Below are positions 3,746 to 62,217 of a DNA stretch of 64,000 bases, piece by piece. Origin of the DNA: Candidatus Omnitrophota bacterium (GTDB lineage: Bacteria; Omnitrophota; Gorgyraeia; Aquiviventales; Aquiviventaceae). Position 1 is the stretch's first letter. The number at the start of each line of letters is the position of its first letter. The DNA is taken from assembly GCA_016180575.1 (NCBI GenBank), contig JACPAY010000005.1, positions 3,234 through 67,233 of the forward strand, read 5' to 3'. The position numbers and the translations under genes are program-made. The notes below the pieces were generated by a model that was given only the letters and a program-made list of their open reading frames with translations, had not been told where the DNA came from and made no database searches.

Positions 3746-4300
3746 ATGCGCGTGGTCATCGGGATCACCGGCGCCTCGGGCGCGGTCTTCGGGGTGGACT
3801 TCCTCCGGCGCTGCCCGGCGGAGGAGAAGTACCTCATCCTGACGAAGTGGGGCCGGTACGTCCTCAAGGAGGAAACCGGGCTCACCGAGCACCACCTGGC
3901 CGAGCACGTGAAGAAGAGCTTCTCCGATGAGGACCTCGCCGCACCCTTCTCGTCCGGCTCGACGCCGTTCGATGCGCTGGTCATCCTGCCCTGCTCGGTC
4001 TCGACGATGGCGAAGATCGCCTGCGGCCTGGCCGACACGCTGCTGACGCGCGCCGCGGCGGTCGCGCTCAAGGAGCGGCGCCGGCTCATCATCGGCCTGC
4101 GGGAGACGCCGCTCTCCACGATCCACCTGGAGCAGGCGGCCAAGCTGTCGCAGGCCGGGGCGATCGTGATGCCGATCGCGCCGCCGTTCTACCACCGGCC
4201 GCAGACCATCGATGAGCTGGTGGAGCAGTTCAACGCCAAGGTCCTCAGCCTCCTCGGGTTCGAGACCGCCCTCGCCTGGAAGCCCGAAGCCCTGGAATAA
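3746..4300 (+). CDS. ubiX: UbiX-type flavin prenyltransferase (MqnL-like)
   Basis: MRVVIGITGASGAVFG N-terminus and PCSVSTMAKIA motif. SD GGAGG upstream. Confidence 0.85.
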   Translation: MRVVIGITGASGAVFGVDFLRRCPAEEKYLILTKWGRYVLKEETGLTEHHLAEHVKKSFSDEDLAAPFSSGSTPFDALVILPCSVSTMAKIACGLADTLLTRAAAVALKERRRLIIGLRETPLSTIHLEQAAKLSQAGAIVMPIAPPFYHRPQTIDELVEQFNAKVLSLLGFETALAWKPEALE

Positions 4301-4320
4301 TAGGAACCGGTCCCATTTTT
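4298..4320. repeat. Family A palindrome copy A2
   Basis: taataggaaccggtcccattttt, between ubiX and the ubiD-like gene. Confidence 0.85.
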
Positions 4321-4325
4321 CCTCG

Positions 4326-6083
4326 ATGAGCGATTTGCACAGTTTTCTGGCGCTGCTTGAGCGGGAAGGCCAGCTGGCGCAGGTGCGCATCGAGGTGGAC
4401 CCCGAGCTTGAGATCACCGAGATCGCCACGCGCGTCGTGAAGGAGCAGGGGCCGGCGCTCCTCTTCGAGCGCGTGCGCGGCTCCGATTTCCCTCTGGCCA
4501 TCAACATCCTGGGCAGCGCGAGGCGCATCGAGCTGGCGCTTGGCCGGCACCCGCAGCAGGTCGGCCGGGAGCTTTCGCGCCTGATGGAGGCGGCGATGCC
4601 GCCGCGCCCGAAGCGGCTGCTCGATGAGTGGCGCACCGTCGGCCGCGTCCTCGCATCGCCCCCCAAGCGCGTGCGGCGCGCGGCCTGCCAGGCCATCGAG
4701 GAGCCGCCGGACCTCTCGCGCCTGCCCATCATGAAGTGCTGGCCCAAGGACGCCGGGCGCTTCATCACCTGCGGCATGGTGCTCACCCACGACCCCGAGA
4801 CCGATACGCGCAACCTCGGCATCTACCGGATGCAGGTGGTGGGGCCCGACCAGGTGCTGATGCACTGGCAGATCCAGAAGGGCGGCGGGTTCCACTACTG
4901 GAAGGCCGAGCAGCAGGACAAGGCGCTCGCCGTCGCGGTGGTCATTGGCGGCGGTCCCATCCTGTACCTCGCGTCGGTGGCGCCGCTGCCGGAGGGGATC
5001 GACGAGATGGCCTTCGCCGGGTTCCTCGGCGGCGCGCGCGTCCCGCTGGCACTCGGGCGCACCAAGGTCACCGCGGTCCCGGCGGAGGCCGAGATCGTGC
5101 TGGAGGGGATCGTGCCGCCCGATGAGCGGTTGCCAGAAGGCCCCTTCGGGGACCACTTCGGCCACTACTCGCACCCGAAGCCGTGCCCCGTCCTCTGGGT
5201 GCAGGCGATGACCCGCCGCCCCAACGCCATCTACCTCTCCGCCGTCGTCGGCAAGCCGCCGCAGGAGGACCGGTACATCGGCGAGGCGGTCCAGGAGATG
5301 CTCCTGCCGATGATCCGGCTCATCCATCCGGAGCTGCGGGACCTCTGGGCCTACTACGAGGCGGGCTTCCACAGCCTGGCGGCGGCGTCGGTCTTCGAAC
5401 GGTTCGGCAAGGAGGGGATGAAGACGGCGCTGGGGCTCCTGGGCACCGGGCAGATGGCGCTGACGAAGTGCCTCATCCTGGTCGGCGCGGAGGTCGACGC
5501 GAGGGACGCGGGAGCGGTCCTTGGCGCCATCCGGGACCACTTCGACCCGGCCGAGGACTTCCTCTTGCTTCCCGGCGTGCCTTTTGATACGCTGGATTTC
5601 ACCAGCTTCACCCTGAACCTGGGCAGCAAGATGGTGCTGGATGCCACGCCAAACGGTACCGCGCCAGCGAGCCGCCCGCGACCGCTCGACGAGGCCCAGA
5701 TCAGGGCGCTGCACCCCCGCATCCGGCGCGCGCGGTTCCTCGAGAACGCGCTGCTCGCCGTCCAGGTCGAGGGGACGGGCCGCGAGGTCGTGGAAACACT
5801 CGTCCAGGCAACACCGCTCGCCGCCGTGAAGCTCATTGCCGCCGTCAGCCCCGACGTCGACCTGGCAGACCGCGAGAGCCTCCTGTGGGGGATCTTCAGC
5901 CGGTTCGACCCGGCGCGCGACGTGGTGTTCACGTCCACGGAGCTGCGGGGGGCGTGGCCGGTCTCGCGCGGGCGCCTGGGCATCGACGCGACGTTCAAAT
6001 CAGGATACCCCGAACCTCTCATGATGGACCCGCAGATCGTCAGGCGCGTCAGCGCGCGATGGCAGCGGTACTGGACCGCCTAG
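4326..6083 (+). CDS. UbiD-family decarboxylase (MqnM-like)
   Basis: LHSFLALLEREGQL, NLGIYRMQV and PEGPFGDHFGHY UbiD motifs. The upstream in-frame extension from 4212 overlaps ubiX and was rejected. Confidence 0.8.
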   Translation: MSDLHSFLALLEREGQLAQVRIEVDPELEITEIATRVVKEQGPALLFERVRGSDFPLAINILGSARRIELALGRHPQQVGRELSRLMEAAMPPRPKRLLDEWRTVGRVLASPPKRVRRAACQAIEEPPDLSRLPIMKCWPKDAGRFITCGMVLTHDPETDTRNLGIYRMQVVGPDQVLMHWQIQKGGGFHYWKAEQQDKALAVAVVIGGGPILYLASVAPLPEGIDEMAFAGFLGGARVPLALGRTKVTAVPAEAEIVLEGIVPPDERLPEGPFGDHFGHYSHPKPCPVLWVQAMTRRPNAIYLSAVVGKPPQEDRYIGEAVQEMLLPMIRLIHPELRDLWAYYEAGFHSLAAASVFERFGKEGMKTALGLLGTGQMALTKCLILVGAEVDARDAGAVLGAIRDHFDPAEDFLLLPGVPFDTLDFTSFTLNLGSKMVLDATPNGTAPASRPRPLDEAQIRALHPRIRRARFLENALLAVQVEGTGREVVETLVQATPLAAVKLIAAVSPDVDLADRESLLWGIFSRFDPARDVVFTSTELRGAWPVSRGRLGIDATFKSGYPEPLMMDPQIVRRVSARWQRYWTA

Positions 6084-7159
6084 CGCAGAAGCTCCAGCAG
6101 GGCGAGCGGCTCGCGCGCGAGGAGGCCCTGGCGCTCTTTGGGACGCGCGACGTCGTCGCCCTCGGCCGCCTCGCCGGGGCGGCCAAGCGCGCGCGCTTCG
6201 GCGAGCGCGCCCACTTCGTCATCAACCGGCAGATCAATCCCTCCAACGTGTGCGTCCTCTCCTGCCGGTTCTGCGACTTCGCGACCAAGCGGGGGCGGCC
6301 CAACGCGTACGAGATGACCATCCAGGAGATCCTGGAGCGGTGCAGCCCGGAGCTGCGCGAGGTCCACATCGTCGGCGGCCTGCATCCCGACTGGCCCTGG
6401 GGTTTTTACCTTGAGATGTTCCGCGCCATAAGAACGGCCTTCCCGCAAATCCAGATCAAGGCCTGGACGGCGGTTGAGATTGACTACTTCTCGAAGAAGT
6501 TCCGCCTCAGCGTCGAGGAGGTCCTGCGGCAGCTCAAGGACGCGGGCCTCGCCGCGCTGCCGGGCGGAGGGGCGGAGGTGTTCTCGGAGCGGGTGCGCAG
6601 ATCACTCTTCCCCTTCAAGATCGGGGCGCCCCGGTGGCTTGAGATCCACCGCATCGCGCACCGCCTCGGCATCCCGACCAACGCGACGCTGCTCTACGGC
6701 CACATGGAGACGCACGAGGAGCGCGTGGACCACATGCTCAGGCTGCGCGCCCTGCAGGATGAGACGGGCGGCTTCATGAGCTTCATCCCGCTCGCCTATC
6801 AGCCCGGCAAGACCCGGGTGGTGGCCCGCCAGGCCTCCGCCCTCGAGGACCTCAAGACGGTCGCGATCGCGCGCCTGCTGCTCGACAACGTCCCGCACAT
6901 CAAGGCGTACTGGGTGACGATGGGCGAGGAGAGCGCCTCGGTGGCGCTGCAGTTCGGGGCGGACGACATCGACGGCACGATCGGGGAGGAGCGCATCATG
7001 CACGCGGCCGATGCCGCCTCGCCCGTGAGCCTGACGCGGGGACGCCTGGTGGAGCTGATCCGGGAATCCGGCTGCGTGCCGGTGGAGCGCGATGCCCTCT
7101 ATCGCACCATCCACGTGTATGACGACCACGCGCATTGCGAGAATACCGTATCTCAATAG
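6059..7159 (+). CDS. mqnE: Radical SAM enzyme, probable aminofutalosine synthase MqnE
   Basis: CVLSCRFCDFA radical-SAM cluster and CofH/MqnE-like body (GGLHPD, QDETGGF, FGADDIDGT). Adjacent to mqnA. Confidence 0.65.
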   Translation: MAAVLDRLAQKLQQGERLAREEALALFGTRDVVALGRLAGAAKRARFGERAHFVINRQINPSNVCVLSCRFCDFATKRGRPNAYEMTIQEILERCSPELREVHIVGGLHPDWPWGFYLEMFRAIRTAFPQIQIKAWTAVEIDYFSKKFRLSVEEVLRQLKDAGLAALPGGGAEVFSERVRRSLFPFKIGAPRWLEIHRIAHRLGIPTNATLLYGHMETHEERVDHMLRLRALQDETGGFMSFIPLAYQPGKTRVVARQASALEDLKTVAIARLLLDNVPHIKAYWVTMGEESASVALQFGADDIDGTIGEERIMHAADAASPVSLTRGRLVELIRESGCVPVERDALYRTIHVYDDHAHCENTVSQ

Positions 7160-7883
7160 CGCCCCCTTCTTCCAGGGGCTGGCGCTGGGGGAGCGGTATG
7201 AGCTGACGGACTGCGCCCCGCGGGCGCTCGGGGCGCAGGCGGCGGAAGGCTCGCTGCTGGCCGGCCTGATGCCGCTGGCGGACTACCTCCGCCTGGAAGA
7301 GACCTTTGAGCGGGTGGGGCGCTTCGGCATCGCGGTCCGGGGGCGCGTGCGCAGCGTCCTGCTCTTTTCACGCAAGCCGCTCCGGCAGCTTGACGGCGCC
7401 GTCATCGCCGTGACGGAGGAGACGTCCACGACGGCTGTCCTGCTGCGCCTCTTGCTCGAGCAGCGCTACCACATCAGCCCCGCCGCCTATGAGCGCGGCG
7501 AGCGCCCGGACGCCGAGGCGCTCCTCCTCATCGGGGACGCGGCGCTCAAGTTCCAGCAGCGCAACGACCAGTATCCCTTTGAGACGGACCTGGCGTTTGA
7601 GTGGTGGCTCTGGCAGCACCTGCCCTGCGTCTTCGCGGTCTGGGCCATCCGGAAGGACGCCGGCGCCGAGGAGAAGAAAGAGCTTGAGCTGGCATTGTCC
7701 AAGTCGCTGGGGATCAACCTGCGGCAGCTTGAGCGGCTGGCCCAGGACGCCTCCCCAGGGCTCGGCGTCCCGGCCGAGGCGCTGCACAGCTACCTCTCGC
7801 AGTTCACGTACCGGTTCGGGCAGCCCGAGGAGGACGGGATCGCGCAGTTCAAGAGGCTGGTCCATGAGCATCATCTGCTCTGA
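7119..7883 (+). CDS. mqnA: Chorismate dehydratase MqnA
   Basis: RIARIPYLNSAPFF N-terminus typical of MqnA (VitK2_biosynth fold). Overlaps flanking mqn genes. Confidence 0.7.
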   Translation: MTTTRIARIPYLNSAPFFQGLALGERYELTDCAPRALGAQAAEGSLLAGLMPLADYLRLEETFERVGRFGIAVRGRVRSVLLFSRKPLRQLDGAVIAVTEETSTTAVLLRLLLEQRYHISPAAYERGERPDAEALLLIGDAALKFQQRNDQYPFETDLAFEWWLWQHLPCVFAVWAIRKDAGAEEKKELELALSKSLGINLRQLERLAQDASPGLGVPAEALHSYLSQFTYRFGQPEEDGIAQFKRLVHEHHLL

Positions 7884-8976
7884 GGCGCTCGAGGAAAAGG
7901 TGCTCACCGGGACCCGCCTCTCGCGGGAGGAGGGGCTGTGGCTCTGGCAGCGGGGCGACCTCCTGGAGCTGGGTCACCTCGCCAACCAGGTGCGCCGCCG
8001 GCTGCACCCGGAGCCTGTGGTGACGTTCGTCATCGACTCCAACCCCAACTACACCAACGTCTGCGTCACCGACTGCGTTTTCTGCGCCTTCTACCGCAAG
8101 CCCGGCAGCCGCGACGGCTATACCCTGACGGTGGAGCAGGTGATGGAGAAGGTCCAACGGGCGGCGGACCAGGGCGCGACGACGGTGCTGCTCCAGGGCG
8201 GCCACAACCCCCAGATCCCCCTCGACTACTACCTCGACCTCGTGCGCGAGACCCGCAGGCGGTTCCCCCGCATCACCCCGCACTTCTTCACCGCGTCGGA
8301 GGTCACCACGATGGCGCAGGTGGCGGGCCTCTCGGTCCGCGAGGTGCTCGAGCGCCTGAAGGAGGCGGGGCAGTTCACGCTGCCCGGCGGGGGCGCCGAG
8401 ATCCTCTCGGACCGCATCCGCCGGCGGTTGAGCCCGAAGAAGGGCGGGGCGGAGGCGTGGCTCTCGGTCCATCACGAGGCGCATCGCCTTGGCTTCAAGT
8501 CGACCGCCACGATGATGTTCGGCCACATCGAGGAGGACGAGGACATCCTGGAGCACCTCGAGCACGTCCGAGCGCTGCAGGATGAGACGGGCGGCTTCAC
8601 GGCGTTCGTGCCCTGGACGTTCAAGCCGGGCAACACCCCGCTTGAGCAGCGCATCGCGCAGCACGCGGGCCCCACGCGGTACCTGCGCATGGTCGCCTTC
8701 TCGCGGCTCTACCTCGACAACGTCCCCCACGTCCAGGCCACCTGGTTCTCCGAGGGCAAGAAGACCGGCCAGATCGCCCTCCACTTCGGGGCCGACGACT
8801 TCGGCGGCACGCTGTTCGAGGAGAACGTCCACGCGGCGACCGGCTTCGTCAACAAGACCGCTGTGGAGGAGATCGTGACGCTCATCCGGGAATCCGGCTT
8901 CATCCCGGCCCAGCGCACCACCCTCTACGAGGTCCTCCGCACGTTCGAGCCGGCCGCGGCGCCGGTGAGCGGATGA
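7864..8976 (+). CDS. mqnC: Radical SAM enzyme, cyclic dehypoxanthinyl futalosine synthase MqnC
   Basis: NPNYTNVCVTDCVFCAFYR, QGGHNP, QDETGGFTAF and FGADDFGGT motifs. Confidence 0.7.
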   Translation: MSIICSEALEEKVLTGTRLSREEGLWLWQRGDLLELGHLANQVRRRLHPEPVVTFVIDSNPNYTNVCVTDCVFCAFYRKPGSRDGYTLTVEQVMEKVQRAADQGATTVLLQGGHNPQIPLDYYLDLVRETRRRFPRITPHFFTASEVTTMAQVAGLSVREVLERLKEAGQFTLPGGGAEILSDRIRRRLSPKKGGAEAWLSVHHEAHRLGFKSTATMMFGHIEEDEDILEHLEHVRALQDETGGFTAFVPWTFKPGNTPLEQRIAQHAGPTRYLRMVAFSRLYLDNVPHVQATWFSEGKKTGQIALHFGADDFGGTLFEENVHAATGFVNKTAVEEIVTLIRESGFIPAQRTTLYEVLRTFEPAAAPVSG

Positions 8977-9974
8977 TCGGCATTGAGCTGGACTGGTCCG
9001 CCATCGTGGCGCGCTCGCTGGGCGGGCAGGGCTTCACGCGCGAGGAGGCGCGGGCGATCCTCGCGCTGCCCGACGACGAGATCCCGCTGCTCCTGGCGGC
9101 CGCGTTCGCCGTCCGGAAGGCGCACTTCGGCAAGCGCGTCAAGGTGTGCATCCTCCAGAACGCCCGCAGCGGGCTCTGCCCCGAGGACTGCCACTACTGC
9201 TCGCAGTCGTCGGTGTCGGAGGCGAAGATCGACAAGTACCCGCTGATGTCCGCGGAGCAGCTGGTGGACGGGGCGCGGCGGGCGGCCGCGGGCGGGGCGA
9301 GGCGCTACTGCATGGTGACGAGCGGGCGGGGCCCGGCCGATGAGGAGATCGAGCACTTCTGCGGGGTGACGCGCGCCATCAAGCAGGAGCTGCCGGACCT
9401 TGAGATCTGCGTGTGTCTCGGGCTGCTCTCCGAGGAGCAGGCAAGGCGCTTGAAGGCGGCGGGGGTGGGCTGGGTGAACCACAACCTCAATTCAAGCGAG
9501 CGGTTCTACTCCGAATTCTGCACCACCCACACCTATCAGGACCGCGTCGAGACGGTCCGCAATGTCCGCAAGGCCGGTCTCATGACCTGCAGCGGCGGCA
9601 TCGTCGGGATGGGCGAGACGGACGAGGACATCCTGGACCTCGCCTTCGCCTGCCGCGAGCTCGGCATGGATTCGATCCCGGTCAACTTCCTCCATCCCAT
9701 CCCGGGCACCCCAATGGAGGCCCATCAGTTCCTGACGCCGATGAAGTGCCTGAAGGTGCTCTGCCTCTTCCGCCTCCTGAACCCGTCGAGCGAGATCCGG
9801 GCGGCCGGGGGGCGGGAGGTGAACCTCCGCTCGCTGCAGCCGCTGGCGCTCTACGCCGCGAATTCCATCTTCGTGGAGGGCTACCTGACGACGCCGGGCC
9901 AGCAGGGCGAGGAGGCGCGGCGGATGATCGAGGATCTTGGCTTCGAAGTCGAACCGGCGGGGAGGGGCGGATGA
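8973..9974 (+). CDS. bioB: Biotin synthase (BioB-type radical SAM)
   Basis: CPEDCHYCSQS, VNHNLNSS, CSGGIVGMGE and IRAAGGRE (the 2Fe-2S Arg region). ATGA overlap with mqnC. Confidence 0.75.
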   Translation: MIGIELDWSAIVARSLGGQGFTREEARAILALPDDEIPLLLAAAFAVRKAHFGKRVKVCILQNARSGLCPEDCHYCSQSSVSEAKIDKYPLMSAEQLVDGARRAAAGGARRYCMVTSGRGPADEEIEHFCGVTRAIKQELPDLEICVCLGLLSEEQARRLKAAGVGWVNHNLNSSERFYSEFCTTHTYQDRVETVRNVRKAGLMTCSGGIVGMGETDEDILDLAFACRELGMDSIPVNFLHPIPGTPMEAHQFLTPMKCLKVLCLFRLLNPSSEIRAAGGREVNLRSLQPLALYAANSIFVEGYLTTPGQQGEEARRMIEDLGFEVEPAGRGG

Positions 9975-10516
9975 CGAGGCGATGGGTCGTGACGACGCTG
10001 GGGAAGGACCGCCCGGGGATCGTCGCGGGGGTCACGAAGATCCTCTACCGGCTTGGCTGCAACCTCGAGGACTCGGCGATGACGCGCCTGGCCGGGGAGT
10101 TCGCCATCATGCTCATCTTCTCGGCGCCGGCCAAGGCGGCCGAGGCCGCCCTGCGGAAGGCGTTCGCGCCGCTGGAGCGGGGGCTGTCGCTGACGGTCCA
10201 TCTGAAGCCGCTGACGAAAGCGGAGATCGCTTCGCCCCGAAAGCGGGGGCGGGCCTACGTGATCTCGGTCTACGGGGCGGACCATCCCGGCATCGTGTTC
10301 CGCATCACGGACTCGCTGGCGCGCGCCGGGGTCAACATCACCGACCTGCACACGCACCGCACCGCCGGGGACGGGGCGCCGCTCTACCTGCTCCTGCTGG
10401 AAGTGGAGACCCCGCCGCGGGTCAGCGCCGCCAGGCTTGAGCGGCGCCTGCACACCCTGGCCACGACGCTGCGTGTTGAAGTCAGCTTCCGCCCCGCAGA
10501 CGCCGCCGTCCTCTAA
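9971..10516 (+). CDS. Tandem ACT-domain protein (GcvR-like)
   Basis: Two DRPGIV/DHPGIV ACT motifs. ATGA overlap with bioB. Confidence 0.65.
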   Translation: MTRRWVVTTLGKDRPGIVAGVTKILYRLGCNLEDSAMTRLAGEFAIMLIFSAPAKAAEAALRKAFAPLERGLSLTVHLKPLTKAEIASPRKRGRAYVISVYGADHPGIVFRITDSLARAGVNITDLHTHRTAGDGAPLYLLLLEVETPPRVSAARLERRLHTLATTLRVEVSFRPADAAVL

Positions 10517-10576
10517 TCGGGGACAGCCACTAATTTCCCTATGGCAGACTCAAGGAAATCAGTGGCTGTCCCCGAT
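10515..10576. repeat. Family C inverted repeat copy C1 (arm AATCGGGGACAGCCACTAATTTCC)
   Basis: 24-nt arms with one mismatch and a 14-nt loop. Overlaps the ACT-gene stop and the def start. Confidence 0.9.
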
Positions 10577-11071
10577 TTTTCCATCCGGCGGTTTCCGGAC
10601 CCCCTCCTCAAGCAGCCGACGCGCCGCGTGGACCGCGTGGACGACCGCATCCGGGCGCTGATCGACGCGATGGTGCGGACGATGCGCCATCACCCCCGCT
10701 GCGTGGGCCTGGCAGCCCCCCAGGTCGGCCGCGGCCTGCGCATCGCGGTGATGGACGCCTCCCGGCACCCCAAGGCCGCGGCGAGCCTCGGCCTGCTCGT
10801 CCTCGTCAACCCGCAGATCCTGGAGCGCGAGGGCAGCCTGCTGCAGCGGGAAGGGTGTCTCTCCGTCCCGGACTTCACCGGCAACGTCCCGCGCGCGTCG
10901 CGCGTGCGCCTGGCAACCTGGGACCGGGCGGGCTCCGCGATGGAGCTTGAGCTGGAGGGGTTCGAGGCGGTCATCGCGCAGCACGAGGTGGACCATCTCG
11001 ACGGGACGCTGTTCCTGGACCGCGTCGCCAACCTCGCCACCGATGTCTTCAAGCGGAAAACCTACCTGTGA
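10541..11071 (+). CDS. def: Peptide deformylase
   Basis: GLAAPQVG, EGCLSVP and HEVDHLDG motifs. Both candidate starts (ATG 10541, GTG 10562) lie inside element C1. Confidence 0.85.
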   Translation: MADSRKSVAVPDFSIRRFPDPLLKQPTRRVDRVDDRIRALIDAMVRTMRHHPRCVGLAAPQVGRGLRIAVMDASRHPKAAASLGLLVLVNPQILEREGSLLQREGCLSVPDFTGNVPRASRVRLATWDRAGSAMELELEGFEAVIAQHEVDHLDGTLFLDRVANLATDVFKRKTYL

Positions 11072-11080
11072 AGAAGGCGT

Positions 11081-11164
11081 GTGAGTCACAAAGTCACAAG
11101 GTCACAAAGTCACACGTGTGACCTTGTGACCGCGTGGTAGTCTCCAGTGTGTGACCCTGCGACC
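11081..11164. repeat. Family D: inverted arrays of GTCACAA(R)/(Y)TTGTGAC 8-mers, copy D1
   Basis: Four forward units, then two plus two reverse units split by a 16-nt spacer. Lies between convergent def and mqnD. Confidence 0.85.
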
Positions 11165-24194: not shown

Positions 24195-25892
24195 ATGGAC
24201 CGGCACGAGCAGCGCGTCGTTCGCTTTCTCTCCAAGCCCTCCGCCTATCCGCATCGCGCGCCCGCCGTGGCGCGGCGGGAGACGCACGTCTCGCACGTTT
24301 TCCTGGCCGGCCCGTTCGCCTATAAGCTCAAGAAGCCGGTGAAGTTTCCGTTCCTCGATGCCTCCACGCTGGCCAGGCGCCGGCGGTTCTGCGGGCTGGA
24401 GCTCTCGCTCAACCGCCGCCTGGCGCCGGCGGTCTACCTGGGCATGGTGCCGATTGTGGAGACGCCGGCGGGGCTGCGCCTCGGTCCCTCGACTCGGCCT
24501 TCGGCCTCGCTCGGGACGTCGCCCGGACGCGACGGGGCGGGGCTCCGCGGGCACGAACGGATCATCGAGTGGGTGGTGAAGATGCGCCGCCTGCCGGAGG
24601 AGCGGATGCTGGACCAGGTGGTCGCCCGCCGGCAGCTGACCAGGGGCGACATGCTCCGCATCGCGGACCGGCTCAGCCGGTTCTTCCGGCGCGCCGCGCG
24701 GGGCCCCGCCATCGCCCGCTACGGCGCCCCGGACCAGGTGGCCGCGCTGGTCCTGGGCAACCTGGACGAGTGCCGGCCGTTCGTCGGCCGACTCTTCTCG
24801 GAGTCCGACCACCTGTTCCTCAAGGCGGCCTACCGCCAGTACCTGGCGCTCCACGAGCCGCTGCTGGCGCGGCGCGCGCGCGAGGGCCGGATCATCGATG
24901 GCCACGGCGACCTGCGGTGCGAGAACATCTGCCTGCCTGCCGCGCCGAAACGAGGAATGAAGCGTGGCGCGGCGCAGGCAGGCCTGACCAGTCCGGTCAT
25001 CTTCGACTGCGTGGAGTTTCAGCCGGCGTTCCGGTGCGGGGACATGGCCAACGATTTCAGCTTCCTCGTCATGGACCTGGAATTCCGCGGACGAGCCGAC
25101 CTGGCCGACGCCCTGGTCGCCGGGTACCGGCGCCGCCTGGGCGATGCGACCCTCGCGCAGGTCCTCCCGTTCTACAAGTGCCACCGCAGCCTCGTGCGCG
25201 GCAAGGTGCGGGCCCTGGCGTGGTCCCAGCACCCGCGCACGGCGCGGGGCCGGCGCGTGCGCGCGCTCTCCCGCCGCCACTTCCAGCTTGCGGCGCGCTA
25301 TGCACGAGCCTTCGCCCCGCCGCGGCTCGTGGCGGTCGGCGGGCTGATCGGCACCGGCAAGAGCACGCTCGCCCGCGCGCTGGCCCAGGCGCTGGGGGCC
25401 TCCTGGCTGCGCACCGACGAGATCCGGCTGCGCGAGTTCGCGCGCGCCAAGCGGCGCGGGCAGGGCTTCGCCCAAGGCCTCTACGCCCCGCACATCTCGG
25501 AGCTGGTGTACCGGCGGCTGCTCCGGCGGGCCGAGACCCTGGTGCGCGAGGGGGGCTCGGTCATCTGCGACGGGACGTTTTCGAAGGCCGCGGGGAGGGC
25601 GGCGCTGCGCGAGATCGCCAGGCGGCACGGTGGTTCGTTTCACTTCTTCGAGTGCGTGGTCCCCCGCGCGGTGGCCCTGCGCCGGGTGGCCAGGCGCTAC
25701 GCCGCGCGCGCGGATCTTTCGGAGGCGCGGCCGGAGCACTACGACCGGCTGCGGGCCGGCTTTGAGCCCCGCCCTCGGCGGGGCTGGCCGCGCCGGGACT
25801 GGACCCGGCTCTCCGACAACCGCGCGCCCCAGGCGACCGCGGCGGCCGCGCTGGCGGCGCTGCGGCGCGCATGGTCTCAATTTGGCGGGTGA
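24195..25892 (+). CDS. Bifunctional APH-like kinase domain / P-loop (AAA_33-like) ATP-binding protein
   Basis: HGDLRCENI..FDCVEF kinase motif and C-terminal GLIGTGKSTLA Walker A. Contains in-frame hairpin insert H1. The last codons and the stop come from element E1. Confidence 0.7.
   Translation: MDRHEQRVVRFLSKPSAYPHRAPAVARRETHVSHVFLAGPFAYKLKKPVKFPFLDASTLARRRRFCGLELSLNRRLAPAVYLGMVPIVETPAGLRLGPSTRPSASLGTSPGRDGAGLRGHERIIEWVVKMRRLPEERMLDQVVARRQLTRGDMLRIADRLSRFFRRAARGPAIARYGAPDQVAALVLGNLDECRPFVGRLFSESDHLFLKAAYRQYLALHEPLLARRAREGRIIDGHGDLRCENICLPAAPKRGMKRGAAQAGLTSPVIFDCVEFQPAFRCGDMANDFSFLVMDLEFRGRADLADALVAGYRRRLGDATLAQVLPFYKCHRSLVRGKVRALAWSQHPRTARGRRVRALSRRHFQLAARYARAFAPPRLVAVGGLIGTGKSTLARALAQALGASWLRTDEIRLREFARAKRRGQGFAQGLYAPHISELVYRRLLRRAETLVREGGSVICDGTFSKAAGRAALREIARRHGGSFHFFECVVPRAVALRRVARRYAARADLSEARPEHYDRLRAGFEPRPRRGWPRRDWTRLSDNRAPQATAAAALAALRRAWSQFGG
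24932..24982 (+). repeat. Family H intragenic hairpin insert H1 (51 nt, in frame)
   Basis: cctgcctgccgcgcc-16 nt-ggcgcggcgcaggcagg inside the kinase-like ORF, translated LPAAPKRGMKRGAAQAG. Confidence 0.75.
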
Positions 25893-29231: not shown

Positions 29232-29349
29232 ACTCTCGAAACGGCAAACTTCCCGCAAGGGAGGGACGCAAAGCCGCGGGTCCTGGTGCCTGGCTCTTCG
29301 CGAAGCGAAGTGCCTGGCACCGGAAGGATAGCCGGGCTACCGAAAGAGG
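29232..29349 (+). promoter_or_regulatory. c-di-GMP-I (GEMM-I) riboswitch
   Basis: ACGGCAAAC-[ttccc GCAA gggag hairpin]-GGGACGCAAAGCC-[long P2 hairpin ggtgcc..ggcacc]-AAGGATAGCCGGGCTACCGA matches the order and conserved blocks of the Vc2-type aptamer as I recall them. Ends at the ATG of the DUF948-like gene. Confidence 0.75.
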
Positions 29350-29990: not shown

Positions 29991-30053
29991 AATCGGGGAC
30001 AGCCACTAATTTCCTAGTGGTGGCCGAAGGGAAATTAGTGGCTGTCCCCGATT
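29991..30053. repeat. Family C inverted repeat copy C2
   Basis: Perfect 24-nt arms at 29991-30014 and 30030-30053. Confidence 0.9.
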
Positions 30054-46332: not shown

Positions 46333-46357
46333 ACAAACTAATTCGTCAAGGCGCCCA

Positions 46358-46385
46358 GAAAAAATAGGAACCGGTACCGTTTTTC
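46358..46385. repeat. Family A palindrome copy A5
   Basis: gaaaaaataggaaccggtaccgtttttc, in the marR / IMPase divergent region directly upstream of TACAAT. Confidence 0.8.
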
Positions 46386-47188: not shown

Positions 47189-48491
47189 GTTCGCCTTCCC
47201 GGACGGCTTCCTCTGGGGCAGCGCCACCTCCGCCCACCAGGTCGAGGGGGACAACGTCCACAGCGACTGGTGGGCGTGGGAGCAGGCCGGCCGCGTGAAG
47301 GAGCCCTCCGGGCTCGCCTGCGACCACTACCGGCGCTTCGCGCAGGATTTCGACCTCGCAGCGGAGCTGGGACACAACGCGCACCGCTTCTCGGTTGAGT
47401 GGAGCCGCCTCGAGCCCGCGGAGGGCCGGTGGGACGAGGCGGCGCTTGCGCACTACGTCGAGGTGGTGCGCGCGCTCCGCGCGCGGCGCCTGGAGCCGAT
47501 CGTGACGCTCCACCACTTCACCACCCCCCAATGGTTCGCCTTGCGGGGCGGATGGGTGCGGCCGGACTCGGTGGAGGCCTTCGCGCGGTATGTCCGCCGG
47601 GTCGCCGCGGCGCTGGGCGATTCGGTCCGGTACTGGGTCACCATCAACGAGCCGATGGTCTATGTCCGGATGCATTACATTCAGGGATTGGGCCCGCCCG
47701 GCGCCCGCGACCTCCCGCAGGCGCTCCGCGTCATCGAGCATCTCATCCGCGCCCACGCGGCCGCCTACCGCGTGCTGCACGGCGCGCGCCGCGGGCCAGG
47801 CCCGGCCCCGCAGGTCAGCGTCGCCCATCACGCCCCCGCCTTCGGGCCGTGCCGGCGGTGGTGGCCGCCGGACCGCTGGATGGCCGCGCGGACCGACCGC
47901 GTGTTCAACTGGGCGCTCCTCGAGGCGCTGACCGAGGGCCGGTGGGTCGTGCCCGGAGTGGGGAAGTGGCGCATCCCGGAGGCCGCAGCGACGCTCGACT
48001 ATGTCGGCGTGAACTTCTACGGGCGGCAGTTCATCCAGTGGGCCCCCGCGGCGGGCGCGTGGCCCGGCGCGAGCTGCGACCTGGGACACCATCCGCGGGA
48101 GGTCACCGAGCGCACCTCGTACGGCTGGGATGTGCACCCGGCCTCCTTCGTGCAGGTCCTCTCGCGCATCGGGCGGATGGGGCGGCCGATCCTCGTGACG
48201 GAAAACGGCACCTACATGCAGGACGACGCCAGGCGCTGGGACTTCATCCTGCGCCACGTGCAGGCGATGGCGCGCGCGTTCCAGCAGGGCGCGCGGATCA
48301 TCGGCTACTGCTACTGGTCGCTCCTCGACAACTTTGAGTGGGCGGATGGGTTCGGCCCGCGCTTCGGCCTGGCGGAGGTGGACTACGCGACCCAGCGGCG
48401 GACCATCCGAGACAGCGGCCGCCGGTACGCGGAGATCTGCCGCGCCAACCGCGTGGAAATCGGGGACATGGAAATCGGGGACAGCCACTAA
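47181..48491 (+). CDS. GH1 beta-glucosidase
   Basis: FLWGSATSAHQVEG, TINEP (acid/base) and VTENG (nucleophile) motifs. The last ~10 codons and the stop are encoded by element C3. Confidence 0.85.
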   Translation: MPEFAFPDGFLWGSATSAHQVEGDNVHSDWWAWEQAGRVKEPSGLACDHYRRFAQDFDLAAELGHNAHRFSVEWSRLEPAEGRWDEAALAHYVEVVRALRARRLEPIVTLHHFTTPQWFALRGGWVRPDSVEAFARYVRRVAAALGDSVRYWVTINEPMVYVRMHYIQGLGPPGARDLPQALRVIEHLIRAHAAAYRVLHGARRGPGPAPQVSVAHHAPAFGPCRRWWPPDRWMAARTDRVFNWALLEALTEGRWVVPGVGKWRIPEAAATLDYVGVNFYGRQFIQWAPAAGAWPGASCDLGHHPREVTERTSYGWDVHPASFVQVLSRIGRMGRPILVTENGTYMQDDARRWDFILRHVQAMARAFQQGARIIGYCYWSLLDNFEWADGFGPRFGLAEVDYATQRRTIRDSGRRYAEICRANRVEIGDMEIGDSH

Positions 48492-48544
48492 TTTGCGAAT
48501 GGGAACAATTGTGTCCAGGCTTAAATTAGTGGCTGTCCCCGATT
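48455..48544. repeat. Family C inverted repeat copy C3 with 15-nt tandem duplication of the left end
   Basis: ggaaatcggggacat/ggaaatcggggacagccactaattt ... aaattagtggctgtccccgatt. Confidence 0.85.
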
Positions 48545-48548
48545 GTTG

Positions 48549-49392
48549 ATGCGGGCGTTGGTGCTGGGGGCGACCGGGCATATCGGGCTGCCCCTGGGTG
48601 TTCCATGCCGCTGGCTACTATCCCCGGTTTCGAGAGCGGCGCAAGGAGGCCATCGAGCGGGGCCTCCGGTCCACGCGCCGTCTCCTCGAGCAGCTCCGGC
48701 GGATGGGCCCCGCGCGCATCGTCTTCACGAGCAGCGCAGCCACCATCCGGCGCGTGCCCGGGCGGCCGGCGACCGAAGCGGACGCCGAGCCCTGGCCGCC
48801 GGCCGAGTGGCGGCCGCTCTACGCGACGGTCAAACTCGCGATGGAGCACGAGGTGCTGGAGGCCTGCCGGGGCGGGCTGCCCGCCGTCGTGGTGAACCCC
48901 AGCCTCTGCGTCGGGGAGTACGACGCGCGGCCCTTCTCCGGCCGGGCCGTCCTGGCATTCGCCCGGCCCGGCATCCCGGTCTACGTGCGGCACACCTTCA
49001 ACGCGGTCTACACCGGCGACGTCGCCATTGGGCACCTCCGCGCGGCCGAGCGGGGGCGTCTCGGCGAGCGCTATCTCCTCGTCGGCCGCAACGTGACCCT
49101 GCGGGAGTTCGCAACGCTCGTCGCCCGGGCGGCCGACGTGTGCCCGCCGCGGTGGCGCGTCCCGTACGGCCTCGTGTGGGCCGCGGCCGTCTCGACGGAG
49201 GCCGCCGCCTGGCTGGCGCGCACCGAGCCGTTGCTGCCGCGGGGTGCTGTCCACTCGCTGCGGATGGGACAGCTGCTGGATGGGACGAAGGCGCTGCGGG
49301 AGCTCGCGCTGCCCCAGACGCCGCTTGAGGAAGCCATCCGGCGGGCGCTTGCGTGGTTTAAGTTGCTTCCTTCCGGTATCAGATACCGGTAA
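48549..49392 (+). pseudogene. NAD-dependent epimerase/dehydratase with internal deletion and frameshift
   Basis: MRALVLGATGHIG Rossmann start (frame of 48549) is joined after ~16 codons to VFHAAGYY... (frame of 48598). About 50 residues normally between these motifs are missing. Confidence 0.7.
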
Positions 49393-49427
49393 AATAAACG
49401 GGTTAGTAGGCCGGTATCTGATACCGG
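49373..49427. repeat. Family B inverted repeat copy B3
   Basis: ccggtatcagataccgg ... ccggtatctgataccgg. Encodes the last codons (GIRYR) and the stop of the epimerase pseudogene. Confidence 0.85.
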
Positions 49428-49441
49428 AACGGGAGGCGCTC

Positions 49442-55267: not shown

Positions 55268-55774
55268 ATGCTGCCATCCCCTGATGAACTGAAACGCGCG
55301 TTGGAGCAGTTGCTGCCCGGCGTCTCGCTGACGCTGGAGGGAACGGTCCTGTTCGTGGGGCCGAAGGACCTTGCCGCGGTGTGCCGCTGCCTGAAGGAGC
55401 AGGAGCGGTTCGGGCTCGACTACCTCGCGAACCTGACGGCGGTGGACTACCCGACGGAGCACCTGCCTGCCGCGCCGGAGGCGAGCACGAGTGGCGCGGC
55501 GCAGGCAGGGCGGATGGATGTGGTCTACCACCTCTATTCCATGGCGCAGAAGCACGGCCCGGTCATCCTCAAGGTGAAGCTCCCGCGGGCGAATCCGGTC
55601 GTCGCATCGGTGACCCCGATCTGGCGGGGCGCCGAGTTCCAGGAGCGCGAGGTCTATGACCTCTACGGGGTGACCTTCGAGGGGCATCCGGATCTGCGCC
55701 GCATCCTCATGTGGGACGGCTTTCAGGGCCACCCGATGCGCAAGGACTACGTGCCGGAGGATCAGGATGCTTAG
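55268..55774 (+). CDS. nuoC: NADH-quinone oxidoreductase subunit C (contains in-frame hairpin insert H2)
   Basis: LTAVDY...VVYHLYS and [22 protein letters not shown] motifs. Confidence 0.85.
55462..55509 (+). repeat. Family H intragenic hairpin insert H2 (48 nt, in frame)
   Basis: cctgcctgccgcgcc-16 nt-ggcgcggcgcaggcagg inside nuoC, translated [16 protein letters not shown]. Confidence 0.75.
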
Positions 55775-56986: not shown

Positions 56987-56990
56987 CGGA

Positions 56991-57090
56991 GTCACAAAGT
57001 CACACAGAGGAGAAGCTGCACGCGGTCACAATGTCACATGGCTTCATGGCCAGTCCACCTTGTGACTTTGTGACCTTGTGACTTTGTGAC
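56991..57090. repeat. Family D copy D3
   Basis: 2+2 forward units and 4 reverse units (cttgtgactttgtgaccttgtgactttgtgac), between nuoD and nuoI. Confidence 0.85.
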
Positions 57091-57108
57091 TTCATAGGAG
57101 TATCTGCA

Positions 57109-59002: not shown

Positions 59003-60775
59003 ATGACATCGCAGCCTGGGGACTCTCCAGCCCGCGTCGCGGCCTCGGAGCCGGCCGCTATCGAGTGGGAGCGCAAGCCGAAGACGATCGACGCCAACCT
59101 CAAGGACTACGACGCCGCCTACAAGGGCTTCGACTGGAAATCGGTCGAGCGGGAGTTCGACTGGTCGAAGACGGGGAAGGTGAACGTGGTCCATGAGGCG
59201 GTGGACCGCCACGCCGCCTCCCCGCGCAAGGACAAGCTCGCGCTCGCCTTCACCGACTTCGCGGGCCGGGATGAGCGCTGCACCTTCCAGGACCTCAAGC
59301 GGCTCACGAGCCGCTTCGCCCACGCGCTGCGGCAGCTCGGCGTGAAGAAGGGCGACCGCGTGGGGACGTTCCTGCCGCGCACGCCCGAACTCTACATCGC
59401 GATCCTCAGCATCAACCGCATCGGCGCCATCCCCGTGCCGCTCTTCGAAGCGTTCATGGAGCAGGCGGTCGAGGACCGGCTGGGGGACAGCGAGGCGGTC
59501 GCCTGCGTCACCTCGCCCGCCCTGAAGGGCCGCATCCCGCTCAAGAAGCTGCCGAAGCTCAAGCGGCTCATCCTCGTCGGCGCCTCCGGCGCGCTCGCCC
59601 CCAACGAGGCGAGCTACGAGCAGGCCACCGCCAACGCCCCGGATTGGGTGGAGCCGGAGTGGCTCACTGTTGACGACGGCCTCGTCATCCACTACACCTC
59701 AGGCTCCACGGGAAAGTCCAAGGGGGCGCTCCACCGCCAGTACGCGATGGTCGGCCACTACCAGACGAGCAAGTGGGCGCTCGACCTGCGGGATGACGAC
59801 GTGTACTGGTGCACGGCGGATCCTGGGTGGGTGACCGGCACCTCCTACGGCATCTACGGTCCCTGGACGCTGGGGATCTCGAGCGTCGTGATCGGCGGCC
59901 GCTTCGACCCGGACCGGTGGTACGAGACCATCCAGCGCTACAAGGTCACGATGTGGTACAGCGCGCCCACCGCCTACCGCATGCTCATGTCCGCGGGCGA
60001 GGCCATCCCGAAGAAGTACGACCTCAAGAGCCTGCGCCACATCTGCAGCGTCGGCGAGCCGCTCAATCCGGAGGCGCTGAAGTGGGTCAAGAAGATCACG
60101 GGCCTGGCGCCCCATGAGACCTGGTGGATGACCGAGACCGGCATGCAGCTCATCTGCAACTATCGGAGCAAAGATTTCCCCATCGGGTGCACGGGCAAGC
60201 CGTTCCCGGGCACCTACGCGACGGTGGTGAACGACCAGGGCAGGGAGCTGCCGCCGGGCGAGCTCGGCCACCTCGTCGTCAAGCCGGGCTGGCCGTCGAT
60301 GATGAAGGAGATCTGGCGAAACCCCGTCAAGTATCAGGAGTACTTCCGCATCCCCGGCTGGTATGTGAGCGGCGACAGCGCGTACCGGGACGAGCAGGGC
60401 TACCTCTGGTACCAGGGAAGGGCGGACGACGTCATCAAGACGGCGGGCGAGCGCGTGGGGCCGTTCGAGGTCGAAAGCGCCCTCGTCGCGCACCCGGCGG
60501 TGGCCGAGGCGGGGGTGATCGGCAAGCCCGACCCGGTGCGCGGGCACATCATCAAGGCCTTCGTCTCGCTGCGCAAGGGCCACCAGCCCTCGGAGCAGCT
60601 CAAGCAGGACATCGCCGACTTCGTGAAGAACAACCTTGCGGCCCACGCCGCCCCGCGCGAGATCGCGTTCGTGGACAAGGTGCCCAAGACCCGGTCGGGG
60701 AAGATCATGCGCCGCGTCCTGCGCGCCTGGGACCTCGGCCAGCCCGTCGGCGACATCTCGACGATGGAAGAATGA
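59003..60775 (+). CDS. acs: AMP-forming acetyl-CoA synthetase family ligase
   Basis: YTSGSTGKSKG AMP motif, WWMTETG, SGDSAYRDEQGY and PKTRSGKIMRR motifs. Confidence 0.8.
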   Translation: MTSQPGDSPARVAASEPAAIEWERKPKTIDANLKDYDAAYKGFDWKSVEREFDWSKTGKVNVVHEAVDRHAASPRKDKLALAFTDFAGRDERCTFQDLKRLTSRFAHALRQLGVKKGDRVGTFLPRTPELYIAILSINRIGAIPVPLFEAFMEQAVEDRLGDSEAVACVTSPALKGRIPLKKLPKLKRLILVGASGALAPNEASYEQATANAPDWVEPEWLTVDDGLVIHYTSGSTGKSKGALHRQYAMVGHYQTSKWALDLRDDDVYWCTADPGWVTGTSYGIYGPWTLGISSVVIGGRFDPDRWYETIQRYKVTMWYSAPTAYRMLMSAGEAIPKKYDLKSLRHICSVGEPLNPEALKWVKKITGLAPHETWWMTETGMQLICNYRSKDFPIGCTGKPFPGTYATVVNDQGRELPPGELGHLVVKPGWPSMMKEIWRNPVKYQEYFRIPGWYVSGDSAYRDEQGYLWYQGRADDVIKTAGERVGPFEVESALVAHPAVAEAGVIGKPDPVRGHIIKAFVSLRKGHQPSEQLKQDIADFVKNNLAAHAAPREIAFVDKVPKTRSGKIMRRVLRAWDLGQPVGDISTMEE

Positions 60776-60799
60776 AAAACGGGACCGGGTCCCTTTTTT
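60775..60799. repeat. Family A palindrome copy A7
   Basis: aaaaacgggaccgggtccctttttt, starting at the last base of the acs TGA stop. Confidence 0.85.
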
Positions 60800-60817
60800 C
60801 CACCGTTGGCCGATCAG

Positions 60818-60842
60818 AAAAAATGGACCCGGTCCCAATTTT
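60818..60842. repeat. Family A palindrome copy A8
   Basis: aaaaaatggacccggtcccaatttt, supplying the tlpA-like start codon. Confidence 0.85.
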
Positions 60843-61756: not shown

Positions 61757-62145
61757 GCGGCGACGGAGCGCTCCGTCTCCCACACCCGGACGCAGGTGAC
61801 CGGAAAGCCCTGGGAGGCGGCGTGCTCGAAGATCAGCCGGGCGATCGCCTCGGCGGTCGGGTTGTCGTCGAGCAGGAAGACCGGCTCATGCCGCTCCCGC
61901 AGGAGCGGCGCCACCGGATCGTCGCGGTGCAGCAGCATCTTGTGGTCCAGCTCCTGGTCGATCCACGCCTGCACCACCCGCTTGATCTCGTCGAAATCCC
62001 GCACCATCCCCCTGCGGTCCAGCGTCCGGCTGCTCAGCTCGATCTCGACCTTCCCGTTGTGCCCGTGCAGGTAGCGGCACTTGCCCTGATAGTTCAGGAG
62101 CCGGTGGCCGTAGCAGAACTCGATAACTTTGGTAACTGCATACAT
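61660..62145 (-). CDS. queD: 6-carboxy-5,6,7,8-tetrahydropterin synthase
   Basis: FCYGHRL...C..LHGHN motif of the PTPS/QueD family. Confidence 0.85.
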   Translation of the reverse strand: MYAVTKVIEFCYGHRLLNYQGKCRYLHGHNGKVEIELSSRTLDRRGMVRDFDEIKRVVQAWIDQELDHKMLLHRDDPVAPLLRERHEPVFLLDDNPTAEAIARLIFEHAASQGFPVTCVRVWETERSVAAYRPDAAVRRRPRAGRRAARRRAAARSISTAA

Positions 62146-62148
62146 GGC

Positions 62149-62207
62149 GTCACAAGGTCACAAGGTCACAAGGTCACATGTGACGTGTGACGCTGTGACG
62201 TTGTGAC
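62149..62207. repeat. Family D copy D4 (most regular)
   Basis: gtcacaag x3 + gtcaca | tgtgac gtgtgac gctgtgac gttgtgac, starting 4 nt from the queD ATG. Confidence 0.9.
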
Positions 62208-62217
62208 CCACAATGGG

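Follow-up and report, generated by a model that had tools for sequence, protein, structure and literature searches.

How the same hairpin-forming sequence came to lie in frame within two unrelated protein-coding genes is the question raised by a 64,000-nt stretch of DNA from a Candidatus Omnitrophota bacterium (contig JACPAY010000005.1; the whole stretch is called the window below). The first copy is a mini-element of 51 nt (17 codons) at 24932-24982 on the forward strand, inserted in an open reading frame (ORF) for a kinase-like protein, and the second (48 nt, 16 codons; 55462-55509, forward strand) is located in nuoC. Comparison with related sequences indicates that copy 1 is probably, if by no means certainly, a miniature and non-autonomous member of a family of hairpin-ended elements with full-length forms that carry a GIY-YIG nuclease gene, and that this nuclease would be the agent mobilising the miniatures.

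Two mini-elements in the kinase and nuoC genes

Copy 1 is composed of a 15-nt left arm (24932-24946, CCTGCCTGCCGCGCC), a variable loop of 19 nt (24947-24965, GAAACGAGGAATGAAGCGT, encoding KRGMKR) and a 17-nt right arm (24966-24982, GGCGCGGCGCAGGCAGG), which has 2 bulged nt when paired with the left arm, all on the forward strand. Copy 2 consists of 15 + 16 + 17 nt, with the arms at 55462-55476 and 55493-55509 and the loop at 55477-55492 of the same strand. An initial annotation of the window had recognised the nuoC copy, and both arms indeed proved to be exact there; the spacer of 16 nt that it gave for copy 1 belongs to the nuoC copy only. The two inverted arms, 32 nt in total, are thus identical in two unrelated genes. 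Copies 1 and 2 are the sole sites in the window with an exact match to either arm, relaxed matches occur at about chance level, and no further or degenerate copies were found in the 64 kb at up to 4 mismatches per arm.

When folded as DNA, copies 1 and 2 reached -19.7 and -19.1 kcal/mol (z = -4.6 and -3.1, respectively), and 0 of 200 shuffled sequences were as stable; the RNA fold of the copies was at about -30 kcal/mol. The predicted structure has 15 stem bp interrupted by a 2-nt bulge on the 3' arm. The bulged hairpin foreseen in the initial annotation was recovered, and ViennaRNA drew its register as 7 + 8 bp, equivalent to the 9-bp and 6-bp stems described earlier. Rfam gave no match at the elements, either in the window or in 8 loci. 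Both copies are on the sense strand of long ORFs and share one reading phase, LPAAP…GAAQAG. The GC content of the window is 68-71%, and CCT and GCA, which both occur as arm codons, account for 8.7% of its Pro codons and 4.2% of its Ala codons, respectively. As these arm codons are rare in the window, peptide selection or codon bias cannot account for the constancy of the arms.

The kinase host ORF (24195-25892, forward strand) encodes a protein of 565 amino acids (aa) with an N-terminal APH-like kinase region and a C-terminal AAA_33 domain. At 100% identity the same protein is listed by NCBI for a metagenome-assembled genome (MAG) of a 'Candidatus Omnitrophica bacterium'. Copy 1 was correctly placed by the initial annotation between the motifs HGDLRCENI and VIFDCVEF of this ORF, where its 51 nt are translated as LPAAPKRGMKRGAAQAG. 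The further statement that these motifs are normally only a few residues apart agrees with the homologues, of which 87 of 119 have 8 residues between HGDLRCENI and FDCVEF (C[LM]TDPVN[IV]) and the remaining 32 have an insert. The nuoC host ORF (55268-55774, forward strand) encodes 168 aa, and its homologues fall into 57 without an insert (DYP(x)E(Q)R…) and 42 with one. Most orthologues lack the added residues, and distant orthologues with homologous residues and no palindrome were not encountered.

At the nucleotide level, excision of 24932-24982, which interrupts ATC TG/C CTG ACC, gives ATC TGC CTG ACC (ICLT), the empty state of the orthologues; the placement of copy 1 is ambiguous by the 4 nt CCTG, across which it can slide. 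Likewise, excision of 55462-55509 from GAG CA/G CGG gives GAG CAG CGG (EQR), and an empty orthologue (locus L201) reads GAG CAG CGC. Comparison of empty and filled sites therefore identifies both window copies as precise insertions.

The AlphaFold2 model of the kinase has a mean pLDDT of 89.6, and the insert residues (248-264) are mostly coil in a stretch of lower confidence, with pLDDT values of 61-72 for blocks of 10 residues. In APH-type kinases this position corresponds to the turn that leads from the Asn of the catalytic loop to the metal-binding Asp. In all likelihood copy 1 is a passenger that a surface loop of the kinase tolerates and to which it adds 17 residues.

A cross-phylum family with invariant arms

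The family is defined by the termini 5'-CCTGCCTGCC…GCGCAGGCAGG-3'. A scan of a genome collection (one genome per species) with these ends only, as CCTGCCTGCC-N15-45-GCGCAGGCAGG, returned at least 117 stretches, nearly all of them hairpins. The MAG labels include Patescibacteria/CPR groups, WOR-3, Planctomycetota, Verrucomicrobiota, Desulfobacterota, Bacteroidota, Methylomirabilota, Chloroflexota, Nitrospirota, Omnitrophota and others, and the GC content of the loci ranges from 34% to 77%, so that the family is not restricted to GC-rich genomes. The family is large, real and spread across phyla. Its miniatures are 36-66 nt long; a 39-nt form, CCTGCCTGCCGCGCCGCTTCGCTTTGCGGCGCAGGCAGG, recurs in several phyla, and inner hairpins are nested within longer ones. 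Past the fixed ends, pairing of the stem extends in the 2-nt-bulge register, the next two positions being complementary in ~66% of the copies with all four pair types used, as compared with ~22% complementarity in shifted registers.

A metagenome scan with both full arms fixed returned 78 stretches, and the metagenome hits together with the two window copies, the kinase locus L120 and two genome-scan loci form the set of 84 exact-arm copies used below. Hairpins were also present on 12 contigs of IMG/VR, and the cultured-phage and plasmid collections gave chance-level partial matches only. The recurrence of the arms is thus far above chance and far beyond the two places in the window. A local origin of the palindromes by template-switch or quasi-palindrome mutation, or by chance and with no family behind them, could invoke the general knowledge that palindromes arise by template switching and the CTGCCTG already present at the kinase target. 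Such an origin is at odds with the 32 arm nucleotides shared by two unrelated genes and with hundreds of copies with the same ends elsewhere; it was refuted by the scans of genome and metagenome collections, and the probability left to it is negligible.

The length is 48 nt in 44 of the 84 exact-arm copies and a multiple of three in 77. Among 67 distinct sites, 54 are in open frames of at least 120 codons that are still open with the element present. At sites with a clear signal from the GC content of third codon positions, the element is read as LPAAP…GAAQAG in 16 cases, as LPAPR…ARQAG in 4 and in other frames in 4. At loci with a GC content of 56% or less, at which spurious ORFs are rare, the element is translated within long ORFs, of up to 1179 aa, as LPAP…RQAG or LPAAP…AQAG. 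Both orientations of the element encode stop-free LPA…QAG peptides, and members of the family are found between genes as well as within unrelated ones, with either orientation and with several frames. The proposal made at the outset, that a palindromic nucleotide module colonises ORFs in frame in the manner known from Rickettsia, is supported by these precise insertions, by the many copies, most of them intragenic, and by the lengths.

Signs of mobility were found within and between loci. At locus L123 two miniatures with an identical loop are present at different sites 660 nt apart, and members of a 57-nt subfamily, recognisable by its interior, are present at 4 or more unrelated sites, including a different position in the kinase orthologue of L119. 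No target-site duplication was detected at any of 65 distinct family sites for k of 3 or more (0/65), nor by comparison with empty sites. The base that precedes the element is G at 69% of the sites, A at 25% and T at none. CAGG is the last sequence of the 5' flank at 7 of the 65 sites, and the kinase-site element has CCTG as its next 3' sequence, a weak signal that suggests a preference for sites mimicking the element end.

The target loops themselves are variable. Among NuoC orthologues the loop has at least 3 different insertion points, and one orthologue has a double insert. At the kinase site of L120 the element is in the same orientation as in the window, with identical arms and a different loop, and at that of L118 an element of the same length is present in the opposite orientation. 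This last case, together with the stop-free peptides encoded by both orientations, is what would be expected of an intragenic invertible segment (inverton), in which the arms serve as recombination sites for an invertase and two protein variants are produced. The L118 loop, which is unrelated to the window loop, is not its reverse complement, for site-specific inversion a spacer of 13-19 nt is very short, no gene for a recombinase is recurrent in the neighbourhood, and dispersal to many genes and phyla is unlike invertons; an inverton is accordingly considered highly improbable.

Several inserts of other kinds were noted in the same genes. The window kinase contains a second lineage-specific insert at 24486-24548 (residues 98-118, PSTRPSASLGTSPGRDGAGLR; pLDDT < 50), which was ruled out as another hairpin (z = +1.8). 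The 57-nt family member of the L119 orthologue lies at about codon 90, in the same N-terminal region, and this N-terminal loop may be another insertion hot spot. Orthologues of the kinase loop (window 24903-25019) also hold unrelated inserts, such as WSPSAMLRGEILSKANGRVEG, PAPPxGGG and longer ones, and a 7-residue insert of the PAAGGAG type is common in orthologues of the NuoC loop (window 55433-55531). These unrelated inserts may be other element families or decayed copies.

The arms are far more conserved than the genes around them. The window nuoC gene and that of L199 differ at 96 of 456 nt, including 67 of 152 third positions (44%), versus 2 of 48 nt and 0 of 16 third positions in the element; in the kinase gene the arms differ at 0 of 32 nt versus a gene divergence of 28%. 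A compensatory change (G>C/C>G) of the inner stem was found in L200. Loops differ between copies and between orthologues, the arms being invariant, and the arms are constant across a host GC range of 38-69%. Extra, non-ascertained copies in the fetched DNA were either perfect or one base off, with no cloud of decayed copies. A role of the loop as a guide or as a copy of the target was ruled out, as the longest common substrings of loop and flank were equal to those of shuffled pairings.

Conservation in situ far above that of synonymous sites, the compensatory stem change and the invariance across host GC are also what retention of the hairpin for host use would predict, whether as a domesticated nuclease-binding site with an influence on recombination or transformation, as a fold of the DNA or mRNA with a local slowing effect on replication or translation, or as a useful peptide. 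A host-level effect is indeed demonstrated for the related Ssn/NTS system described below (PMC11893778). Host use is nonetheless regarded as improbable: unrelated genes, and sequence between genes, share the module with either orientation and several frames, its presence or absence is patchy among close orthologues, the inserts fall in surface loops of low confidence, and the fixed rare codons are not explicable by selection at the peptide level.

GIY-YIG nuclease genes between the arms

Arms without a nearby mate were the starting point of a search for long arm-bounded elements. In loci L046, L049 and L027 a left and a right arm are 271-280 nt apart, and the segment they enclose is translated from the opposite strand in frame with the host ORF, as LPAP-PPSPFYVYAIECEDGSLYIGQTDNL…KTGFGRQRLKRLIQKGG-ARQAG. 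This segment is a GIY-YIG catalytic domain (Pfam PF01541, E = 4e-14 and 8e-16), the sole domain in ~85 aa. A tblastn search of all fetched DNA disclosed 5 GIY-YIG genes of this clade, and all 5 abut family arms. Arms are present on both sides in L046, L049, L027, L214 and L215, whereas L123 and L135 have a complete hairpin at the 3' end. The exact arms of the window copies (15 + 17 nt) bracket 300 nt in L214, 291 nt in L215 and 291 nt in L027, at locus GC contents of 38%, 55% and 40%, respectively. The full-length elements are 282-300 nt long, all five lengths being multiples of three, and the GC content of the interior tracks that of the host, the arms remaining unchanged. The family arms are thus physically associated with GIY-YIG genes.

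Loci L027, L046 and L049, with the MAG labels WOR-3, Syntrophaceae and Nitrospiraceae, each combine a full-length element and a 39-nt miniature within the same 8 kb, and one of these loci contains type I restriction-modification (R-M) genes. The family may have crossed phyla in part by the transfer of R-M loci as a whole.

The association was also apparent at the protein level. A word-indexed profile search returned 224 small proteins. In the best 60 of these, arm-encoded motifs flank the domain N-terminally in 18 of 28 and C-terminally in 32 of 47 evaluable cases, as compared with 0 of 4 and 1 of 5 in the remaining 60 compared. An exhaustive profile search of 1.84 billion cluster representatives gave 26,658 hits at E up to 1e-3, 6,125 at up to 1e-10 and 169 at up to 1e-30. 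The best 150 hits are mostly internal segments in proteins of 150-1100 aa, and among 91 evaluable top hits both arm-encoded motifs were found in 58 and at least one in 86 (typically …DLPAPRPG-domain-…AGRTRQAG…). The columns of the catalytic residues Tyr, Tyr, Arg, His and Glu show no or almost no variation. Among solved structures the nearest relatives of the nuclease are the UPF0213 proteins 1ywl and 1zg2 (E = 5e-10).

Hosts of the in-frame nuclease inserts include the genes hsdS, hsdR, tuf and those for ketoacyl synthase and trigger factor. Pfam analysis of ten host proteins recognised four HsdS, one of them with two inserts, as well as a DUF1156/DUF559 protein, an Eco57I-type (type IIG) R-M enzyme, a type III Mod, an SNF2 helicase and trigger factor; further fusions were seen with MsrB, HsdR and EF-Tu. 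Among the proteins P0367-P0506 the arm-flanked module is especially frequent in restriction-modification proteins, and it recurs in HsdS at DPND^EPAS. The phase of the nuclease relative to the arms takes three forms among copies (LPAP…, PACAAP… and ACLPRR…). In most cases the nuclease lacks its own start codon, and its translation appears to take place within that of the host protein.

The tuf gene of L123 is an exception to in-frame fusion, as the nuclease has its own ATG there. The GIY-YIG ORF and a 48-nt miniature (L123:5466-5708, reverse strand; flanks 4757-6901) are inserted 13 codons before the end of tuf, and in both L123 and L135 the nuclease ORF is followed by a complete, in-frame 48-nt miniature with the exact window arms and then by the native tuf 3' end, the junction reading …KGG-LPAAPTKCLPGAAQAG-KTVGAGVITEIAK. 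A second, AT-richer tuf 3' end located upstream keeps EF-Tu intact; it reads KTVGAGVITEILK in L123, and its stop codon overlaps the ATG of the nuclease. The second miniature of L123, with the identical loop, lies 660 nt downstream, past rpsJ. In L215 (3900-4420) a ketoacyl-synthase gene contains an arm-flanked GIY-YIG element between VPNV and ARKATIDV…, and a diverged tandem duplicate of the last ~34 codons of the host precedes the element and keeps the gene intact.

These two loci bear on the main rival to the nuclease as mobiliser. According to this explanation the hairpin miniatures are the primary repeat and are spread otherwise, the GIY-YIG gene is a homing-type invader, and the arms are the two parts of its split target, so that the miniatures would be 'empty alleles'. 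The nuclease gene lies exactly at the place of the loop with both arms complete, mini loops hold no trace of it, and in L123 it stands beside a complete miniature and not between its arms. The diverged duplicate of the host 3' end at the tuf and ketoacyl-synthase loci also fits, such duplicates being typical of homing endonuclease genes. Homing would, however, have to proceed with just 15-17 bp of homology on each side of a dispersed miniature. Full-length copies are present at the central helix of HsdS (DPND^EPAS) in many lineages with no mini-only allele in the sample, no other candidate mobiliser was found near the miniatures, and the spread of the miniatures themselves would be left unexplained. 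A homing invader is therefore thought unlikely, although it deserves more weight than an origin in host use.

Proposed mobilisation of the miniatures and relation to known systems

In the favoured reading, in which the GIY-YIG nuclease mobilises the miniatures, the arms would fold on single-stranded DNA (ssDNA) into the bulged hairpin, and this hairpin would be the structure recognised by a nuclease supplied in trans by a full-length copy elsewhere in the genome. A cut at the foot of the hairpin would allow the unit to be copied or moved and to be placed precisely and without target duplication, with completion by host repair or replication, and insertion would be favoured after a purine or where the site mimics the element end. 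Repeated cleavage, with repair from other copies, could then produce the uniform arms, the replacement of loops, the flips of orientation and the nested copies. Survivors in genes would be insertions whose length is a multiple of three, which contain no stop codon, are translated in the mild LPA…QAG frame and lie in a surface loop that tolerates them.

The closest counterpart of such a system is formed by the Ssn proteins (Chenal et al. 2025, PMC11893778), single-domain GIY-YIG proteins of ~94 aa belonging to CDD family cd10448. Ssn binds the NTS/SRM hairpin repeats (20-50 nt) on ssDNA only and cuts beside them, and the ssn gene is often flanked by repeats on both sides, a layout called identical to that of an insertion sequence (PMC11893778). 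Such binding of hairpin repeats on ssDNA, by a nuclease with the repeats on its flanks, is a precedent for the proposed recognition of the arms. The elements described here likewise combine a small single-domain GIY-YIG protein (~85-95 aa) with multi-copy hairpin arms on its flanks; they share the asymmetry that defines the orientation of the repeat and the insertion sequence-like layout with the gene between repeats, and they too are found in several phyla. They differ in that the hairpins are mostly intragenic and in frame, whereas only 2% of NTS are intragenic (PMC11893778), and in that the nuclease gene usually lacks a promoter and lies in frame within the coding sequence of host proteins. 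A further difference is that the present nuclease, known from its sequence alone, is nearest to UPF0213 among solved structures. NTS have been proposed to modulate recombination or transformation in Neisseria, and SRM-rich genomes include those of Rickettsia and Wolbachia (PMC11893778).

A number of points weigh against mobilisation by the nuclease. The window contains no GIY-YIG gene of this clade, and no tuf either, so that a trans-acting nuclease in this organism is assumed. GIY-YIG enzymes are hydrolases that are not known to form a covalent intermediate with DNA, which leaves the joining of strands unexplained. The mini loops keep no remnant of the nuclease gene, so that their derivation by internal deletion would be conjectural. 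The near-identity of the nuoC element between distant orthologues, loop included, is not simply explained by transposition. All-against-all clustering of ORFs in ~4 kb around 117 loci gave no family that recurs near the miniatures in more than 6 loci. The SRM consensus HGTCWYN(0-2)YYVSBRHN(0-5)WNVSBRGN(0-2)RNCYNB matched neither the window copies nor the 39-nt form on either strand and had 0 matches in the whole window, a positive control with NTS being matched. With UPF0213 proteins as the nearest solved relatives, Ssn-type biochemistry would be ascribed to this nuclease by analogy only.

No transposase was recognised next to the miniatures: the representatives inspected, from clusters that are partly annotated, proved to be genes of the host, for example those for subunits of type I R-M systems. 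In the examination of phage and plasmid sequences no full-length GIY-YIG element was recovered by peptide pattern, which is a weak negative as it relied on a single pattern (RExxLKTGFG).

Rickettsia palindromic elements are also in-frame palindromic repeats in unrelated ORFs that add a peptide and are patchy among orthologues. They are about 100-150 bp long and not known outside Rickettsia, in contrast to the present units, which are 36-66 nt long, GC-rich and found in many phyla. Given the GIY-YIG partner between the arms, the Ssn/SRM pairs would seem to be a closer functional analogue than Rickettsia palindromic elements alone, and the richness of Rickettsia in SRM (PMC11893778) hints that the latter may share the type of mechanism. 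The window element thus resembles both Ssn/SRM pairs and Rickettsia palindromic elements and is distinct from both.

MITEs (miniature inverted-repeat transposable elements) such as Correia, Nezha and the enterobacterial RU are short non-autonomous units as well, with terminal inverted repeats common to a longer coding partner and with some intragenic, translated copies. Unlike them, the present family has no target-site duplication (0/65), its units are much shorter, and its partner is a GIY-YIG nuclease domain only and not a DDE or serine transposase. REP/REPIN sequences and their RAYT proteins have in common with it GC-rich bulged hairpins with conserved stems and variable loops and no target-site duplication; they too are thought to act as ssDNA and to be mobilised in trans by a single-copy gene flanked by repeats. 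Here, by contrast, the ends are CCTG and CAGG with no GTAG or CGTC tag, the location is mostly intragenic and not extragenic, and the protein so far associated with the arms is a GIY-YIG nuclease, where RAYT is a Y1 (HUH) transposase.

With inteins and in-frame or free-standing homing genes the full-length form shares translation within a host protein and conserved sites (tuf, hsdS), and two loci have the diverged duplicate of the host 3' end. It differs from inteins in that Pfam finds GIY-YIG only, and no splicing (Hint) domain, on the inserted segment, and from homing elements in the hairpin-forming inverted arms that bound it and in the dispersal of miniatures to many unrelated sites. Finally, the mobile GC clusters of yeast mitochondria are short GC-rich palindromes dispersed in an AT-rich background, sometimes nested or in coding sequence, and the mechanism of their mobility is unresolved; they are organellar, have other sequences and have no arm-bounded nuclease gene.

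In a full-text literature search neither this hairpin nor an in-frame GIY-YIG element with miniatures proved to have been described, the Ssn/SRM paper alone coming close, and the link of hairpin miniatures to an in-frame GIY-YIG nuclease is new with respect to the literature searched. It is tentatively proposed, with somewhat less confidence than attaches to the origin of copy 1, that these elements constitute a novel class. Such a class would be bounded by hairpins, carry a promoter-less gene for a single GIY-YIG domain, depend on the host ORF for translation, target R-M and housekeeping genes, extend across phyla with ends of 15-17 nt conserved base for base and spawn in-frame miniatures of 36-66 nt, by which the surface loops of ordinary proteins would be remodelled.

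If the favoured reading is true, in-frame translated palindromes, known mainly from Rickettsia, would be tied to a concrete enzyme type, and the phenomenon would be widespread in uncultured bacteria of many phyla. A nuclease-based and translation-dependent element would join the known kinds of bacterial mobile DNA, as an equivalent, driven by a GIY-YIG enzyme, of the transposase/MITE and RAYT/REPIN pairs and possibly as a general mechanism behind insertions like those of Rickettsia palindromic elements. It would also account for hot spots of loop length in conserved proteins (NuoC, EF-Tu, HsdS, kinases). Annotators and phylogeneticists should treat non-homologous 'LPA…QAG' inserts with caution. 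The candidate small nucleases may recognise a bulged hairpin with arms of 15 and 17 nt and could be of interest as ssDNA tools, as argued for Ssn. The conservation of the arms over host GC contents of 38-69% is in any case an unusual evolutionary signal that calls for explanation.

The window contains other features of note. AT-richer palindromes AATCGGGGACAGCCACTAATTTCC…GGAAATTAGTGGCTGTCCCCGATT with 24-nt arms, up to 100% complementary and unrelated to the mini-element, are located at 10515-10577, 29991-30053 and 48473-48544. Another palindrome family consists of CCGGTATCAGATACCGG pairs at 2842-2895 and 49371-49429. Arrays of the 8-nt unit GTCACAA(A/G) in inverted blocks occupy 11077-11136, 56990-57091 and 62141-62208, and terminator-like hairpins AAAAA(C/T)GGGACCGGTCCC-TTTTT are present at 4289-4321, 46353-46385 and 60775-60842. 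Several direct repeats ~1.8 kb apart with 67-82% identity in 6111-9078 point to tandem paralogous genes. Last, a c-di-GMP-I-GGC riboswitch aptamer (Rfam RF03167) was identified at 29234-29345 on the forward strand with 62.9 bits, above the gathering threshold.

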